DNA of 6,424 bases, taken from the IMG/VR virus record IMGVR_UViG_2671180366_000012; one strand, 5' to 3'. The stretch comes from a virus. Lineage: Duplodnaviria; Heunggongvirae; Uroviricota; Caudoviricetes. Positions 1-6,424 of the stretch are shown one piece after another. Below the pieces are notes generated by a model. That model ran no database searches and was not told the origin of the DNA. It worked only from the letters and a program-made list of their open reading frames with translations. The position numbers were made by a program, and so were the translations under genes. Every line of letters begins with the position of its first letter. Within the stretch, counting starts at the first letter, position 1.

Positions 1-29
1 AAGTTGGAGTCATTACCCTGGAGCATTTG

Positions 30-2291
30 ATGATCAAGTTATCTGAAAAAGGCGTGTTTCTCGCCAGTAATAACGAAATAATTGCCGAAGAACATTTCAC
101 CGGCGAAATTAAAAAAGAAGAAGCCAAAAAAGGCACTATTGCCTGGTCTATTCTCTCTTCGCATAATACGTCCGGAAATATGGATAAACTTAAAATTAAG
201 TTTGATTCATTAGCCTCTCACGATATTACCTTTGTTGGTATTGTACAGACCGCTAAAGCGTCCGGTATGGAACGTTTCCCGCTGCCGTATGTGCTGACCA
301 ACTGCCATAACTCACTCTGCGCCGTCGGCGGCACTATTAACGGTGATGACCATGTTTTTGGTTTATCGGCGGCCCAGCGTTATGGCGGTATTTTTGTGCC
401 TCCGCATATTGCGGTCATCCATCAATATATGCGTGAGATGATGGCAGGCGGCGGCAAAATGATCCTCGGGTCAGACAGCCACACCCGTTACGGTGCATTA
501 GGGACAATGGCAGTCGGTGAGGGCGGCGGTGAGTTGGTAAAACAGCTGCTTAATGACACCTGGGATATCGACTATCCGGGCGTGGTTGCGGTGCATCTGA
601 CCGGAAAACCTGCGCCGTATGTGGGGCCACAGGATGTGGCGCTGGCTATCATTGGCGCGGTGTTCAAAAACGGTTACGTCAAAAACAAAGTCATGGAGTT
701 CGTTGGACCGGGCGTTAGCGCGCTCTCTACCGATTTCCGTAACAGCGTTGACGTGATGACCACTGAAACGACCTGTTTAAGTTCTGTCTGGCAAACCGAT
801 GAAGAAGTCCATAACTGGCTGGCGCTGCACGGTCGCGGCCAGGATTACTGCCAGCTTAACCCTCAACCGATGGCGTACTACGATGGCTGCATCAGCGTTG
901 ATTTAAGCGCCATCAAACCAATGATTGCGCTGCCGTTCCACCCGAGCAACGTGTATGAAATCGACACACTGAACCAGAACCTGACCGACATTCTGCGTGA
1001 GATTGAAATTGAGTCCGAACGCGTGGCGCACGGTAAAGCCAAACTCTCGCTGCTGGATAAAGTGGAAAATGGTCGCCTGAAAGTGCAGCAGGGGATTATC
1101 GCGGGCTGTTCTGGCGGTAACTACGAAAACGTCATCGCGGCGGCGAATGCACTGCGCGGTCAATCCTGTGGCAATGACACCTTCTCGCTGGCAGTTTACC
1201 CGTCATCACAGCCGGTGTTTATGGATCTCGCCAAAAAAGGTGTGGTAGCAGATTTGATTGGCGCAGGCGCAATCATCAGAACCGCGTTCTGCGGCCCATG
1301 CTTTGGCGCGGGCGATACGCCAATCAACAACGGTTTGAGTATTCGCCACACCACGCGTAACTTCCCGAACCGCGAAGGCTCTAAGCCAGCTAATGGGCAG
1401 ATGTCAGCGGTGGCGTTGATGGACGCTCGTTCTATCGCTGCGACTGCGGCAAACGGTGGCTATTTAACCTCTGCCAGCGAACTTGATTGCTGGGACAACG
1501 TGCCGGAGTACGCCTTCGATGTAACGCCGTATAAAAACCGTGTTTATCAGGGCTTTGTGAAAGGGGCAACTCAGCAACCGCTGATTTACGGGCCGAACAT
1601 TAAAGACTGGCCGGAATTGGGTGCGCTGACTGACAATATCGTCCTGAAAGTGTGCTCGAAGATCCTCGACGAAGTGACCACCACCGACGAACTGATTCCT
1701 TCCGGTGAAACCTCTTCTTATCGTTCAAATCCGATTGGTCTGGCGGAGTTTACCCTGTCTCGCCGCGATCCCGGTTATGTTAGCAGAAGTAAAGCGACTG
1801 CTGAGCTGGAAAATCAGCGTCTGGCGGGGAATGTCAGCGAGCTGACAGAGGTGTTTGCGCGCATTAAGCAGATTGCTGGTCAGGAGCATATTGATCCGCT
1901 GCAAACTGAAATTGGCAGCATGGTCTATGCGGTGAAACCAGGCGATGGTTCTGCGCGTGAACAGGCGGCGAGCTGCCAGCGTGTGATTGGCGGTCTGGCG
2001 AATATTGCCGAGGAGTACGCGACTAAACGCTATCGTTCTAACGTCATCAACTGGGGGATGTTACCGCTGCAAATGGCGGAAGTACCAACCTTTGAAGTGG
2101 GGGATTACATTTACATCCCTAGCATTAAAGCGGCGCTGGATAATCCGGGTACGACGTTTAAAGGTTATGTGATCCATGAAGATGCGCCGGTAACGGAAAT
2201 TACGCTCTATATGGAAAGTCTGACTGCTGAAGAGCGCGAGATTATCAAGGCGGGTAGTTTGATTAACTTCAATAAAAACCGTCAGATGTAA
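30..2291 (+). CDS. ybhJ: Aconitase-family putative hydratase (YbhJ-like), about 753 aa
   Basis: Long uninterrupted ORF; translation matches what I recall of E. coli YbhJ. The ORF track starts at TTG 27, but ATG at 30 sits 6 nt after GGAG (20..23), so ATG 30 is the likelier start. Stop TAA at 2289..2291. Position next to ybhC and the lambda att site matches the K-12 gene order. Confidence 0.88.
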
Positions 2292-2524: not shown

Positions 2525-3808
2525 TTACTTCTTCGCCTCTGCAACCACTTTACTACCCACGCCGCGGTTATTGTATTCCCACATGCGGTTGTAGTTAGTG
2601 TCATTCAGATTGCGCTGTATTTCGTCGTTATCATCTACGCTGCCGGTATTACCCGCAAACGGACGATTAGAGATCACCGCATCGGCCCACGGTTTAGCCG
2701 TGTTAAAACCTTCGTTGATGGCGCTATCACGGATCACCACCTGACCGTTGGTATTGGCATCAACATCCAGCGAGCGGCCCAGTTGCGCCACACCATCACC
2801 GAAAGCATTGAAACGGCTGTTTACGGCGAGGAAACCGTAGTAAATGTTGGACAGCGTAGCCGGTGCAAACACATACGCTTCTTGCTGAGTACGTGAGTTC
2901 ACCACGCGGAATTCGGTGTTATCGAACACCACTGCGCCGCGACCAGAAACGATATCCACATCCCCTTCAATGTAGCTGTTGGTCACCAGCGTACGCGGCT
3001 GACGATTCGTTTCCAGACGGTTCTGCACACCGCTGTTGGTGACAAAGAAGGTGTTCTGACGACCGAGAATGTTAACGTTGTTAATCTGTACCTGGTCACC
3101 ATCAGTACGCAGTGCCACCGCCGGATGGTTACCTGCATCTACGCTATCGCCCAGCGTGTTTTCGATGGTCAGATTTTGCAGTTGCAGGCCATTGTTTTGT
3201 GACCAGAAGACCGCAGAGCAGAGAACACCGATACTGTCGCTGCGTTTGCTCTGGCAGCTATCGTACATATACCACGCTGGTTTACCTGGCATATATTTGC
3301 CGCGCGGGTTGACGTCGTGACGCCAGTCGGCAGGGCTCATGCCACCATCAAGGGAAAGCCCAATCTTCACATCAATCGGTTTTTCACCTGTACCGTACAG
3401 AGTAATTCCACCCGGAGCGGCAGGGACATATACCGTTCCCTGATACTCACCAGGCATCACGGCAATATACTGGCGCTTGTTGGTACGCTTGATAATTGCC
3501 GCATCTACCGCCGCCTGAATCGTGGTATGCGTTACACCTTGAGTGCCCGCCGGGCCGACAACAAAGTCAGGTTGCGCAGGCAGGGTAATCGGGGAAGGAT
3601 TCCACGCTGCAGCACCTGGTGTCAGGGATGCAAAATAGTGTTGAGCATCGAAATTCTGCGCTTCTTTTGCCGACAGAATCGGGCGAGAAGAGGTACCAGG
3701 CGCGGTTTGATCAGAAGGACGTTGATCGGGCGGGGTTGAGCTACAGGCGGTCAGCGTCACGCCAAAAGCCAATGCCAGCGCCAGACGGGAAACTGAAAAT
3801 GTGTTCAC
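2525..3808 (-). CDS. ybhC: Outer-membrane lipoprotein YbhC (pectin methylesterase-like fold; annotated as acyl-CoA thioesterase), 427 aa
   Basis: ORF on the - strand; N-terminus MNTFSVSRLALALAFGVTLTACSS is a lipoprotein signal peptide with lipobox LTAC. Start is GTG (complement of 3806..3808) with GGAG 6 nt upstream on the - strand. Stop TAA is complement of 2525..2527. Translation matches what I recall of E. coli YbhC. Confidence 0.88.
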   Translation of the reverse strand: MNTFSVSRLALALAFGVTLTACSSTPPDQRPSDQTAPGTSSRPILSAKEAQNFDAQHYFASLTPGAAAWNPSPITLPAQPDFVVGPAGTQGVTHTTIQAAVDAAIIKRTNKRQYIAVMPGEYQGTVYVPAAPGGITLYGTGEKPIDVKIGLSLDGGMSPADWRHDVNPRGKYMPGKPAWYMYDSCQSKRSDSIGVLCSAVFWSQNNGLQLQNLTIENTLGDSVDAGNHPAVALRTDGDQVQINNVNILGRQNTFFVTNSGVQNRLETNRQPRTLVTNSYIEGDVDIVSGRGAVVFDNTEFRVVNSRTQQEAYVFAPATLSNIYYGFLAVNSRFNAFGDGVAQLGRSLDVDANTNGQVVIRDSAINEGFNTAKPWADAVISNRPFAGNTGSVDDNDEIQRNLNDTNYNRMWEYNNRGVGSKVVAEAKK

Positions 3809-3854
3809 AGGTTGCTCCGGGCTATGAAATAGAAAAATGAATCCGTTGAAGCCT

Positions 3855-3869
3855 GCTTTTTTATACTAA
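3855..3869. other. att core (overlap region O) of attL, sequence GCTTTTTTATACTAA
   Basis: Exact 15-bp lambda core. Upstream flank ccgttgaagcct is the bacterial attB arm; downstream flank gttggcattataaaaaagcattgcttatcaatttgttgcaacgaacaggtcactatcagtcaaaataaaatcattatttg is the lambda P' arm as I remember it. Confidence 0.92.
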
Positions 3870-3950
3870 GTTGGCATTATAAAAAAGCATTGCTTATCAA
3901 TTTGTTGCAACGAACAGGTCACTATCAGTCAAAATAAAATCATTATTTGA
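3870..3950. promoter_or_regulatory. P' arm of attL: IHF H' site (3895..3907, tATCAAtttgTTG) and three tandem Int arm-type sites (about 3915..3947)
   Basis: IHF consensus WATCAANNNNTTR is matched at 3895..3907. Arm-type-like repeats caggtcactat / cagtcaaaat / aaatcattat lie at 3915..3947 and overlap the 3' end of int, as in lambda. Confidence 0.65.
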
Positions 3951-5013
3951 TTTCAATTTTGTCCCACTCCCTGCCTCTGTCATCACGATACTGTGATGCC
4001 ATGGTGTCCGACTTATGCCCGAGAAGATGTTGAGCAAACTTATCGCTTATCTGCTTCTCATAGAGTCTTGCAGACAAACTGCGCAACTCGTGAAAGGTAG
4101 GCGGATCCCCTTCGAAGGAAAGACCTGATGCTTTTCGTGCGCGCATAAAATACCTTGATACTGTGCCGGATGAAAGCGGTTCGCGACGAGTAGATGCAAT
4201 TATGGTTTCTCCGCCAAGAATCTCTTTGCATTTATCAAGTGTTTCCTTCATTGATATTCCGAGAGCATCAACATGCAATACTGTTGGGATGGCAATTTTT
4301 ACGCCTGTTTTGCTTTGCTCGACATAAAGATATCCATCTACGATATCAGACCACTTCATTTCGCATAAATCACCAACTCGTTGCCCGGTAACAACAGCCA
4401 GTTCCATTGCAAGTCTGAGCCAACATGGTGATGATTCTGCTGCTTGATAAATTTTCAGGTATTCGTCAGCCGTAAGTCTTGATCTCCTTACCTCTGATTT
4501 TGCTGCGCGAGTGGCAGCGACAGGGTTTGTTGTTATATGGCCTTCAGCTATTGCCTCTCGGAATGCATCGCTCAGTGTTGATCTGATTAACTTGGCTGAC
4601 GCCGCCTTGCCCTCGTCTATGTATCCATTGAGCATTGCCGCAATTTCTTTTGTGGTGATGTCTTCAAGTGGAGCATCAGGCAGACCCCTCCTTATTGCTT
4701 TAATTTTGCTCATGTAATTTATGAGTGTCTTCTGCTTGATTCCTCTGCTGGCCAGGATTTTTTCGTAGCGATCAAGCCATGAATGTAACGTAACGGAATT
4801 ATCACTGTTGATTCTCGCTGTCAGAGGCTTGTGTTTGTGTCCTGAAAATAACTCAATGTTGGCCTGTATAGCTTCAGTGATTGCGATTCGCCTGTCTCTG
4901 CCTAATCCAAACTCTTTACCCGTCCTTGGGTCCCTGTAGCAGTAATATCCATTGTTTCTTATATAAAGGTTAGGGGGTAAATCCCGGCGCTCATGACTTC
5001 GCCTTCTTCCCAT
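3943..5013 (-). CDS. int: Tyrosine recombinase, lambda integrase Int, 356 aa
   Basis: Full-length ORF on the - strand. Translation matches lambda Int as I recall it, including the C-terminal ...HLLGHKSDTMASQYRDDRGREWDKIEIK with the catalytic Tyr 15 residues from the end. An intact BamHI site (ggatcc, 4113..4118) lies inside the gene. Start ATG is complement of 5011..5013. Confidence 0.96.
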   Translation of the reverse strand: MGRRRSHERRDLPPNLYIRNNGYYCYRDPRTGKEFGLGRDRRIAITEAIQANIELFSGHKHKPLTARINSDNSVTLHSWLDRYEKILASRGIKQKTLINYMSKIKAIRRGLPDAPLEDITTKEIAAMLNGYIDEGKAASAKLIRSTLSDAFREAIAEGHITTNPVAATRAAKSEVRRSRLTADEYLKIYQAAESSPCWLRLAMELAVVTGQRVGDLCEMKWSDIVDGYLYVEQSKTGVKIAIPTVLHVDALGISMKETLDKCKEILGGETIIASTRREPLSSGTVSRYFMRARKASGLSFEGDPPTFHELRSLSARLYEKQISDKFAQHLLGHKSDTMASQYRDDRGREWDKIEIK

Positions 5014-5209
5014 TTCTGATCCTCTTCAAAAGGCTACCTGTTACTGGTCGATTTAAGTCAACCTTTACCGCTGATTCGTGGAACAGATACTCTCTTCCAT
5101 CCTTAACCGGAGGAGGGAATATCCTGCACTCGCGTACCCATCGACGAACTGTTTCAAGGCTTCTTGGGCGTCGCTGGCGTGCGTTCCACTCCTGAAGTGT
5201 CAAGTACAT
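4991..5209 (-). CDS. xis: Excisionase Xis, 72 aa
   Basis: ORF MYLTLQEWNARQRRPRSLETVRRWVRECRIFPPPVKDGREYLFHESAVKVDLNRPVTGSLLKRIRNGKKAKS matches lambda Xis. Its 3' end overlaps the int start by 23 nt (4991..5013), as in lambda. Confidence 0.95.
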   Translation of the reverse strand: MYLTLQEWNARQRRPRSLETVRRWVRECRIFPPPVKDGREYLFHESAVKVDLNRPVTGSLLKRIRNGKKAKS

Positions 5210-5221
5210 CGCAAAGTCTCC

Positions 5222-5235
5222 GCAATTACACGCAA
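5222..5235 (-). promoter_or_regulatory. cII-binding direct repeat TTGC-N6-TTGC of the int promoter pI
   Basis: The - strand reads TTGCGTGTAATTGC just upstream of the xis start codon. In lambda this is the cII recognition motif of pI, whose transcript starts inside xis so that Int is made without Xis. Confidence 0.6.
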
Positions 5236-5236
5236 G

Positions 5237-5257
5237 AAAAAACCGCCATCAGGCGGC
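5237..5257 (-). terminator. Short GC hairpin followed by a U-run on the - strand (terminator-like), overlapping the orf55 stop codon
   Basis: The - strand reads GCCGCC-UGAU-GGCGG-UUUUUU: a 5-6 bp stem from 5243..5247 pairing with 5252..5256, followed by six T (complement of A 5237..5242). The stem is short, so termination efficiency is uncertain. Confidence 0.35.
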
Positions 5258-5416
5258 TTGGTGTTCTTTCAGTTCTTCAATTCGAATATTGGTTACGTCT
5301 GCATGTGCTATCTGCGCCCATATCATCCAGTGGTTATAACAGTCGTTGATGTTCTCTGCTTCGATAACCCTGTTGAATGGCTCTCCATTCCATTCACCTG
5401 TGACTCGGAAGTGCAT
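5249..5416 (-). CDS. Small conserved lambda ORF (55 aa) between xis and the accessory region
   Basis: Not in the supplied track (below its length cutoff). The - strand reads ATG...TGA giving MHFRVTGEWNGEPFNRVIEAENINDCYNHWMIWAQIAHADVTNIRIEELKEHQAA. GGAG lies 7 nt upstream of the ATG. Same size and position as the 55-codon ORF I recall after xis in lambda. Confidence 0.65.
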   Translation of the reverse strand: MHFRVTGEWNGEPFNRVIEAENINDCYNHWMIWAQIAHADVTNIRIEELKEHQAA

Positions 5417-5427
5417 TTATCATCTCC

Positions 5428-5454
5428 ATAAAACAAAACTCGCCGTAGCGAGTT
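5428..5454 (-). terminator. Rho-independent terminator-like hairpin for leftward transcription, downstream of the 142-aa gene
   Basis: Perfect 7-bp stem aactcgc (5437..5443) / gcgagtt (5448..5454) with 4-nt loop cgta. On the - strand it is followed by UUUUGUUUU (complement of 5428..5436). Confidence 0.45.
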
Positions 5455-5499
5455 CAGATATAATTTCCACCAAAGGCAGTAGTTGCTTGATGCTAAGAA

Positions 5500-5928
5500 T
5501 TATTCAATATCTATTCCTGTAATATCTTTTATCTTTTTCCTTGCAAAGCCTTTTGCTAGTGATTTTGAAACACTCATAAGTGTACTAATTCCCTCATCCT
5601 TAAAGTTTGTTTTTATAGCTTGCCAGACATCCTTTTGACGTAAGTCAGCAATAAAATCATGCCCTCTTGCTGTCAACCTCAGTGGTACTTCGATCCAACT
5701 ATATCCAACACCTTCCCCTAACGCTTTGGACAATATATGACCGAACCCAGGTTTTCCATCAACCCTGACTATTAATTCGTAGTCACATAATAATCGCATA
5801 TGGAAAATAAAATCTTGGTCATATCTATTAAAGCCATTATCCTCTAGTTCACTAAGCATCGTGTCAGGGCCACGAGTTTTTTCGAATGCGATAAGTAGAT
5901 CTTTTAGATATTGCTGGTCTAATTTCAT
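5500..5928 (-). CDS. Hypothetical protein, 142 aa, AT-rich moron-like gene in the prophage accessory region
   Basis: ORF with strong RBS: the - strand reads GGAGG-cggca-ATG. Composition is conspicuously AT-rich compared with flanking genes. No signal peptide, transmembrane segment or family motif that I recognise. Confidence 0.75.
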   Translation of the reverse strand: MKLDQQYLKDLLIAFEKTRGPDTMLSELEDNGFNRYDQDFIFHMRLLCDYELIVRVDGKPGFGHILSKALGEGVGYSWIEVPLRLTARGHDFIADLRQKDVWQAIKTNFKDEGISTLMSVSKSLAKGFARKKIKDITGIDIE

Positions 5929-5938
5929 TGCCGCCTCC

Positions 5939-5950
5939 GTGACATGTCAC
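5939..5950. promoter_or_regulatory. 12-bp perfect palindrome GTGACATGTCAC between a -10-like TATAAA and the RBS of the 142-aa gene (candidate operator or 5' UTR hairpin)
   Basis: Perfect dyad at 5939..5950 in the 28-bp intergenic spacer. On the - strand the order is TATAAA (complement of 5956..5961), 5 nt, palindrome, GGAGG, ATG. No good -35 hexamer is apparent. Confidence 0.3.
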
Positions 5951-5956
5951 AGAGAT

Positions 5957-6295
5957 TTATATCATTAATTTTGTTTCGTGCCAGCCTTTGGTCACCCAGC
6001 ATTGTGAGTCACCATTACACGGGCATGAATTAACAGGAACTCTCTCGCCGCACTTACCGCACCGTTTTCTGCTGATCGATTTTATACGCCAGCGCACACG
6101 TGCATCATCCTGGCGGCTCAGTAACGCGATGTACTCACCAAACTCGCAAGGCGCACGCCTGAAGCGACGCGTGGCACAGTTACGCTCCAGCATTTCAATT
6201 TCCTGAGCATCAAGTACAAGCTCCAGCTTACGCATACCGGATGATGCTTGCTTGGCTCTCTGATCGGCTTTGTGCTCTGTTGCTGATTTAGCCAT
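5957..6295 (-). CDS. Hypothetical protein, 112 aa, with C-terminal cysteine cluster (possible zinc ribbon)
   Basis: ORF with AGGA 8 nt upstream of the ATG on the - strand. C-terminal region RKRCGKCGERVPVNSCPCNGDSQCW contains CxxC, CxC and a further Cys; the N-terminal half is basic and predicted helical by eye. Composition is near 50% GC, unlike the downstream 142-aa gene. Confidence 0.7.
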   Translation of the reverse strand: MAKSATEHKADQRAKQASSGMRKLELVLDAQEIEMLERNCATRRFRRAPCEFGEYIALLSRQDDARVRWRIKSISRKRCGKCGERVPVNSCPCNGDSQCWVTKGWHETKLMI

Positions 6296-6424
6296 TCTGC
6301 TTTTCCTGCATCAGGAGAAAGACAATCATGGCGGTGATGCTGCCAACTTACTGATTTAGTGTATGATGGTGTTTTTGAGGGGCTCCAGTGGCTTCCACCT
6401 TTCTCTTGTACACATATCCCAGCC

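Follow-up and report, generated by a model that had tools for sequence, protein, structure and literature searches.

Two kinds of described phage gene stand close to the one analyzed here. The first is the moron, a concept reportedly due to Hendrix, Juhala and colleagues, with HK97 gp15 and lambda bor and lom said to be examples. The second is lambda ea8.5, whose product, as reported from nuclear magnetic resonance work, is a homeodomain/zinc-finger hybrid. Our subject is an AT-rich gene for a protein of 142 amino acids (aa), a predicted winged helix of the DUF2513 family. It lies on the minus strand of a 6,424-nucleotide (nt) stretch of viral DNA (IMG/VR record IMGVR_UViG_2671180366_000012; the whole stretch is called the window below) that covers an E. 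coli chromosome-prophage junction. An earlier note, made from the sequence of the window alone, had read the gene and the signals around it as a moron, an acquired promoter-gene-terminator unit.

Part of that reading stands: the foreign composition, the behavior as swappable cargo and the terminator downstream. The three parts do not appear to be one acquired unit, and their relatives place them in different mosaic modules. Like the lambdoid morons, the window gene is a single AT-rich extra gene, present or absent between adjacent genes, followed by an intrinsic terminator and intact in prophages. Unlike them, it cannot be shown to have its own promoter, its terminator and the promoter-like and palindromic parts belong to the backbone or to the upstream gene, and it lies inside the early pL operon in the same orientation. 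The gene sits at exactly the position of ea8.5 (PMC4195576, PMC3824215, PMC8614690), between the ea22 side and t4-orf55-xis-int. Its product seems to resemble Ea8.5 in kind, as a small protein of the non-essential early-region type with a predicted nucleic-acid-binding type of fold. The two proteins differ in fold and share no sequence similarity, and the window is without the ea8.5-specific hairpin t3.

The explanation we favor, and consider probable, is that this is a functional DUF2513 winged-helix cargo gene in the ea8.5 slot. It would have been acquired as a ribosome binding site (RBS) plus open reading frame (ORF), would be expressed within the early pL operon, and would encode a binder protein. 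The features on which the argument turns are the following.

5426-5455, minus strand: hairpin (5455-5436) and U-run, homologue of the lambda predicted terminator t4; backbone
5465-5963, minus strand: the only segment foreign to both neighboring backbones, about 500 bp; lambda homology ends at 5464 and Uetakevirus-type homology starts at 5964
5500-5928, minus strand: DUF2513/phrog_585 gene, 142-aa winged-helix protein, AT-rich cargo
5934-5938, minus strand: Shine-Dalgarno (SD) sequence GGAGG, 5 nt before the ATG (5928-5926) and abutting the palindrome
5939-5950, no strand: 12-bp perfect palindrome GTGACATGTCAC, linked to the 3' end of ORF112 and not DUF2513-specific
5956-5961, minus strand: TATAAA, -10-like; the last two bases of the terminal ORF112 codon ATA, the TAA stop (5957-5959) and an A
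5957-6295, minus strand: ORF112 (phrog_536, 'transcriptional regulator')

The DUF2513 gene and its composition

The 142-aa ORF is a real gene under purifying selection. Its product matches Pfam DUF2513 (PF10711) over profile positions 1-100 of 100 with 42.5 bits, against a gathering cutoff of 29.6, and phrog_585 over positions 1-127 of 128 (E = 2.3e-34). There are 99 close homologues across the Enterobacterales, all single-domain proteins of about 140 aa, and a profile search recovers about 1,450 family clusters at 50% identity. The family alignment has 17 invariant columns across 43 sequences, and conserved His and Asp residues of the full-length protein are H43, D49, D57, H90 and D91. The ratio of nonsynonymous to synonymous substitution rates (dN/dS) comes to 0.07 in the comparison with a homologue of 72% identity; the E. 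coli sequences among themselves give 0.3-0.7, a range derived from very few substitutions. AlphaFold predicts, with pLDDT 91.4 and pTM 0.82, a winged helix of three helices and a four-stranded wing, followed by three more helices. The winged-helix part is acidic (isoelectric point, pI, 5.2) and the C-terminal helices are basic (pI 9.5). The homology and structure searches that the earlier note had proposed thus yielded a family, DUF2513/phrog_585, and a confident fold prediction.

Other searches returned little. A PDB sequence search with the 142-aa protein gave no meaningful match (best E = 0.87), and Foldseek against PDB and BFVD gave weak matches only (E of at least 0.01). The PADLOC-DB v2 profiles, searched at E <= 1, matched neither this protein nor the 112-aa or 55-aa protein, NCBIfam had no match for the DUF2513 protein, and a literature search on the family found no functional description. 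Membership in the MarR, PadR or HxlR families was rejected, as there is no Pfam match at E <= 0.1 and the similarity is at fold level only. Identity to MarR, PadR, HxlR and TubR is at most 20%, with Foldseek E values of 0.04 or weaker, and the window protein is unlike them in its long wing insertion, its acidic winged helix and its three family-specific C-terminal helices. The YjcQ family (PF09639), winged-helix proteins of Firmicutes prophages, is like DUF2513 small, prophage-borne and uncharacterized. Several DUF2513 members cross-match the YjcQ profile, and the window protein itself does not at E <= 0.1.

The gene is foreign in composition, as the earlier note had claimed. Its GC content is 36.4% (48, 32 and 29% at the three codon positions; GC3 28.7%), compared with 45.1% for int, 49.3% for xis, 45.8% for orf55 and 50.4% for ORF112, and only 0.4% of all 429-bp segments are equally AT-rich. 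The note's hand estimate, mid-30s against about 50% in int and the 112-aa gene, was right for the gene and for ORF112 and too high for int. The codon-usage calculation separates the gene from the flanking phage genes: 41 of 143 third positions are G or C, as opposed to 266 of 599 in the four phage neighbors (29% vs 44%; Fisher p = 6e-4). When the same protein is recoded with the codon usage of the neighbors, GC comes to 45.5%, and about 9 points are thus due to codon choice. This composition is a property of the family, whose genes lie about 10 GC points under their flanks in nearly all hosts. In Cronobacter the values are 0.46 for the DUF2513 gene, 0.57 for the flanks and 0.64 for ORF112; the gap between ORF112 and DUF2513 is 14-18 points in every host.

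The strong RBS that had been reported is there (GGAGG at 5938-5934, 5 nt from the ATG), and GGAG, GGGG or AGGAG is kept at the SD position in homologous loci. Inside the gene, an antisense promoter-like match (5765-5794, plus strand; CTGACT-18-AATAAT, 9/12) is probably a chance occurrence in AT-rich DNA.

Mosaic boundaries and the owners of the flanking signals

Downstream of the gene, a terminator scan found the hairpin GAACTCGC-TACG-GCGAGTTT, followed by TGTTTTATGG. Folded as RNA, it has an energy of -11.9 kcal/mol (z = -3.2). Lambda has nearly the same element at 29305-29324, with one stem substitution, at the same position upstream of orf55. The published t4-lambda sequence is TTTTATCTGAACTCGC TACG GCGGGTTTTGTTTTATG, and its termination activity is predicted only (PMC4195576); t4-lambda and t5-lambda are both listed as predicted terminators by Bloch et al. 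2014 (PMC4195576, Table 4). Homology to lambda (97%; megablast and direct alignment) spans xis, orf55 and the hairpin and continues to window position 5464 (lambda 29333), and in lambda t4 lies downstream of ea8.5. Of 5,426 complete E. coli genomes, 1,216 contain the 44-47 bp around t4 and only 168 the DUF2513 gene, so that the t4 hairpin is present in more than 1,000 genomes without the gene. The 35 nt from the DUF2513 stop codon to 5464 hold no terminator-like structure. Because lambda homology runs through t4, t4 is common in genomes without the DUF2513 gene and the content of the slot varies, the hairpin is a conserved backbone joint beside a variable cargo slot. The hairpin with a U-run that the earlier note saw just downstream exists at 5455-5436; it was not acquired with the gene. 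In lambda itself, the ea8.5-specific hairpin t3 abuts t4 to give a tandem terminator-like structure (lambda 29294-29368, which is L002 2716-2790; -24.7 kcal/mol, z = -5.9), and the mosaic boundary falls between t3 and t4.

On the other side of the gene, homology to epsilon15/phiV10-type phages (TL-2011b and phiV10, about 91%) covers ORF112 and extends over 5964-6334. Between 5464 and 5964 only phage Chlobot matches, and it is 100% identical. The foreign segment consists of a 35-nt 3' tail, the ORF, the RBS, the palindrome and about 10 nt around the ORF112 stop. Cronobacter prophages narrow the mobile part further. They carry ORF112, the palindrome, the SD plus DUF2513, a terminator and terS in this order, and TL-2011b, ZX5 and PAT1 carry ORF112, the palindrome, a terminator and terS, with a terminator and post-terminator motif homologous to those of Cronobacter. 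This comparison indicates that the mobile unit would essentially be the RBS plus the ORF, placed between the palindrome and a pre-existing terminator.

The wider distribution agrees with cargo. Between two genes that stand side by side in related phages, the DUF2513 gene may be present or absent; in sampled genomes, an Ea8.5-like gene or an ASCH-domain gene fills the slot upstream of t4. Other relatives lie before RusA or Q, after replication genes, before terS or in exo-xis, and one stands alone on its own strand in an integrative island of Pectobacterium. In Citrobacter prophages DUF2513 belongs to the nin region and is accompanied by about 35 bp left over from the ORF112 3' end and by the palindrome, which shows that it descends from a copy linked to ORF112. 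No gene is kept as its partner in all these contexts. By its neighbors, then, the gene is swappable cargo in the hypervariable ea8.5 slot of lambda's exo-xis region.

The signals upstream have an owner too. ORF112 has a basic N-terminus, weakly YbfE/RHH-like (7 of 16 members, best E = 0.004, below threshold), and a C-terminus with an invariant Cys4/His pattern and the conserved end …GWHETKL; it has no Pfam relatives, and no PDB relatives by single-sequence or profile search. Its DNA is about 91% identical to that of TL-2011b and phiV10, and it closes the early genes, ahead of terS, in epsilon15/phiV10-type phages. Its final Ile codon and its stop, plus one A, make up the TATAAA. Elsewhere this position reads ATA-TAG (TATAGT), or is missing, with a TGA stop inside the palindrome. 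A sigma-70-type promoter scan found no minus-strand match upstream of the DUF2513 gene. The best candidate, CTGGCA-17-TATAAA with a TG, scores 9/12 and is without the conserved final T; CTGGCA, the sole -35 candidate at 17 nt, is a W-H codon pair of ORF112. Sister loci read xTGGCA-17-TATAGT in the same arrangement and pass the scan criteria.

A single occurrence of the palindrome is not significant, as 51 of 200 shuffles match with at most 2 mismatches; its significance comes only from conservation across loci. The comparison covered the flanking sequences of 125 DUF2513 loci and those of ORF112 homologues from annotated phages. GTGACATGTCAC, with at most 1 mismatch, is found at the stop codon or right behind it in 21 of 24 distinct ORF112 3' ends, and it is present in 9 of 9 distinct ORF112 loci without a downstream DUF2513 gene, where the next gene is terS, a small LexA-box gene, NinB or xis. 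Three ORF112-DUF2513 pairs lack it. The ORF112 TGA stop lies inside the palindrome in TL-2011b, ZX5, PAT1, Klebsiella phi13.3 and Citrobacter Omnitron. The core shows no co-variation and is invariant, and the symmetry sometimes extends, to 14 bp in Cronobacter and ZF40 and to 20 bp in Citrobacter phage Omnitron. Because all sampled ORF112 loci without DUF2513 have it, the palindrome is assigned to ORF112 as a linked element, and it looks like a protein-binding site. The TATAAA and palindrome noted upstream of the gene are thus both real (5961-5956 and 5939-5950), and both belong to ORF112, given the Ile-stop codons and the DUF2513-free loci.

Several identities for the palindrome were tried and rejected. 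An operator for DUF2513 autoregulation fails as the primary reading, because the palindrome also accompanies ORF112 in phages without DUF2513. As a LexA site, judged by eye, it offers CTGT-N8-ACGG, one mismatch off the core and with no AT-rich center; as a CRP site, also by eye, its half-sites are wrongly spaced. A conserved RNA hairpin is not supported, with an invariant core, a minimal stem of 4 bp and an extension that is not kept elsewhere. An RNA hairpin pairing UCUCUGUGA with UCACGGAGG could mask the SD in the window (-10.8 kcal/mol, z = -1.9); outside the palindrome its pairing is not kept in other loci, and we give it little weight.

Four further observations concern these upstream regions. 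First, ORF112 (phrog_536) constantly has the palindrome at its 3' end, usually with its TGA stop inside, in temperate phages from at least seven genera, those of the epsilon15/phiV10 type among them (L139 1486-1497; L148-L153). Second, conserved sequence stops right after the palindrome, and varied cargo comes next. Third, Klebsiella phage ST512-KPC3phi13.3 (L149, ~1075-1113) has a perfect LexA-box-like TACTGTTTAAATATACAGTA before an 85-aa ORF inserted between the ORF112 palindrome and terS, which looks like an SOS-regulated cargo gene in the same hotspot. Finally, a DUF2513 subgroup at 45-50% identity (L018, L020, L022, L023, L025, L129-L137) has a different conserved motif about 35-60 nt before the start, an inverted repeat GGCATTCAC..GTGCC followed by TGTGATAATGCTAAATTA, resembling an extended -10 promoter.

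Proposed expression from the early operon, and the prophage setting

The DUF2513 gene has the orientation of the pL operon, and the exo-xis region is treated as pL-transcribed (PMC4195576). In the explanation we favor, the RBS and ORF would have been acquired directly downstream of an ORF112-palindrome unit from epsilon15/phiV10-type phages and directly upstream of t4, already in lambda. On induction or infection, the gene would be co-transcribed leftward with ORF112 in the early pL operon and translated from its own strong SD. N-modified polymerase would read through t4 and t5 into xis and int. A transcript without N modification, such as one from a weak internal promoter, would end at t4, and this stop would shield xis and int from stray expression. 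The product would be a small winged-helix protein, probably oligomeric, that binds either nucleic acid or a partner protein, and would act without a fixed partner gene. Its role may be in early phage development, like that of other exo-xis genes, or in phage-host or phage-phage conflict.

Some observations weigh against this explanation. First, an IS1 element between ORF112-DUF2513 and pL may cut pL-driven expression in this strain, yet the gene is intact. Second, among 80 distinct loci, 49% have a terminator-like hairpin in the 120 nt downstream, compared with 7% of control segments, and 16% have promoter-like matches upstream, compared with 4%, a modest enrichment. Both enrichments fit autonomous units. 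Many of the upstream matches are the ORF112-derived xTGGCA-17-TATAGT. Finally, an acidic winged-helix part (pI 5.2) is unusual for a DNA binder.

The remaining features of the window are as follows.

27-2291, plus strand: ybhJ, chromosomal gene
2525-3808, minus strand: ybhC, chromosomal gene
3855-3869: lambda att core GCTTTTTTATACTAA, then the P' arm; attL junction
3943-5013, minus strand: lambda-type int
4991-5209, minus strand: xis
5240-5259, minus strand: second backbone hairpin and U-run, the lambda predicted terminator t5 (terminator scan, folding, PMC4195576)
5249-5416, minus strand: homologue of lambda orf55 (phrog_676), downstream backbone gene
6334-6424, plus strand: left end of IS1, matching the annotated 'IS1 family transposase'

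The lambda-like prophage occupies the classical att-lambda site beside ybhC. Between ybhJ and ybhC, positions 2315-2509 hold two tandem REP/BIME-like repeat copies (spacing 92-93 bp, 89-97% identical). An Rfam scan of 3800-6424 at E <= 1 found no RNA families.

The left inverted-repeat end of IS1 sits 38 nt upstream of the ORF112 start and breaks the prophage sequence at 6334, where homology to Chlobot and AMSHJX01 ends. The identical junction is found in only 2 complete E. coli genomes, YJ6 (NZ_AP023235) and ETEC6 (NZ_CP041627). The insertion cuts ORF112-DUF2513 off from the remaining pL operon, and both ORFs are intact. A second, independent IS1 end occurs in L059 (IMGVR_UViG_2713897074_000004), about 60 nt upstream of the DUF2513 start, exactly between the palindrome position and the GGAGG of the gene.

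Alternative explanations and meaning for the family

The first alternative is a classic autonomous moron. Transcription in the repressed prophage would start from a weak extended -10 promoter belonging to the gene, TGATATAAA with CTGGCA 17 nt before it, and stop at t4, and the product would benefit the lysogen, for example by exclusion or defense. We regard this as possible and somewhat doubtful. The foreign composition fits it, and so does the decay of the neighboring gene. In 21 distinct E. coli ORF112-DUF2513 units, DUF2513 is intact at 142 aa in 20 and a 143-aa variant in one, while ORF112 has nonsense mutations in 11, at codons 40, 56 or 79; with three different codons hit, at least three of these mutations are independent. 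RefSeq also marks ORF112 as a pseudogene. (The nonsense loci are L074, L076, L081, L086, L088, L090-L092, L094, L096 and L065; see also L157 3040-3378.) The gene is intact, too, although IS1 severs its pL link. Because of its low GC across the family, its flanking signals, and its integrity while ORF112 decays and despite IS1, we argue that the DUF2513 gene may be maintained on its own, possibly in the prophage state; the counts behind this argument are phylogenetically non-independent.

Relatives add to the case for autonomy. The sister loci with xTGGCA-17-TATAGT meet the promoter scan criteria, the subgroup at 45-50% identity has its own conserved TGTGATAAT-like motif, the Pectobacterium island has a lone gene on its own strand, and 49% of the family have a terminator downstream. 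Fusions to TIR domains and a PDC-M65 neighbor, described below, point the same way. In the window, the proposed -10 is without its conserved final T, ORF112 codons (W-H and Ile-stop) account for both hexamers, the scan gives no minus-strand promoter upstream of the gene, and t4 is backbone. The protein also has no PADLOC match, and the dN/dS within E. coli is only 0.3-0.7, on few substitutions.

A second reading concerns the function of the protein. DUF2513 modules occur as parts of TIR effectors: P0129 has a full-length DUF2513 module at the N-terminus, joined to a CAP12/Pycsar-type TIR domain (E = 8e-21), P0241 has an N-terminal DUF2513 module joined to TIR_2 (E = 3e-19), and P0196 is a weaker case. 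Such fusions are rare (2-3 among the 150 best cluster representatives), and the window protein, which shares the module with P0129 and P0241, is without a TIR or other effector domain. In Pectobacterium (L146 1288-4661, CP139172.1), the lone DUF2513 gene is divergent beside PDC-M65A/B (E = 2e-119 and 6e-45), a candidate defense pair of PADLOC; the island also encodes tyrosine recombinases. The TIR fusions and this one defense-island neighbor hint at a role in phage-host conflict. It is tempting to speculate that the free DUF2513 proteins of temperate phages correspond to the N-terminal recognition module of some TIR immune effectors, acting in phage-host or phage-phage conflict as an exclusion factor that protects the lysogen or as a decoy blocking these effectors, and that the palindrome GTGACATGTCAC is a new operator or docking site marking a cargo hotspot common to epsilon15-like and lambda-like phages; we think this combination unlikely. 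The protein could instead be a non-orthologous replacement of Ea8.5, a small early-development regulator like other exo-xis genes (PMC3824215, PMC4195576).

Third, ORF112 and DUF2513 might form an obligatory two-gene module, in which ORF112, as an RHH/zinc-ribbon regulator, would bind the palindrome and control DUF2513. In E. coli, Cronobacter, Yersinia-type and other loci, the two genes of the pair stand 27-28 nt apart and have diverged roughly in parallel. The invariant palindrome core, with flanks that sometimes extend the symmetry (14 bp in Cronobacter/ZF40, 20 bp in Omnitron), and the window RNA hairpin (-10.8 kcal/mol) that could occlude the DUF2513 SD would suit such control. Against it, both genes commonly occur apart from each other, about half of the E. 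coli units carry ORF112 as a pseudogene, three pairs have no palindrome, a gap of 14-18 GC points separates the two genes in every host, and the SD-occluding extension is not kept in other loci, with a z of only -1.9. We consider an obligatory module very unlikely.

Last, a chance ORF or a decaying, functionless remnant, for which a dN/dS not far from neutral within E. coli could be cited, is refuted by conservation (about 1,450 clusters at 50% identity matching the DUF2513 profile, a confident fold prediction, a longer-range dN/dS of 0.07 and 17 invariant columns across 43 sequences); AT-rich DNA yields long ORFs less often, not more, and nothing specific speaks for a chance ORF.

The DUF2513 gene in the window is AT-rich swappable cargo in a known hypervariable region, and the palindrome and the TIR fusions are the parts worth attention. 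The locus also carries a lesson for reading single genomes. A promoter-gene-terminator picture drawn from one sequence can combine parts of three mosaic modules, which can be told apart only by comparing related phages. The palindrome linked to ORF112 is conserved and has the look of a regulatory element. If the DUF2513 gene is indeed expressed from the prophage and protects the lysogen, this would be a very small, single-gene addition to the known phage-conflict systems, and a first function for a large family of about 1,450 clusters that is present in 168 of 5,426 complete E. coli genomes.

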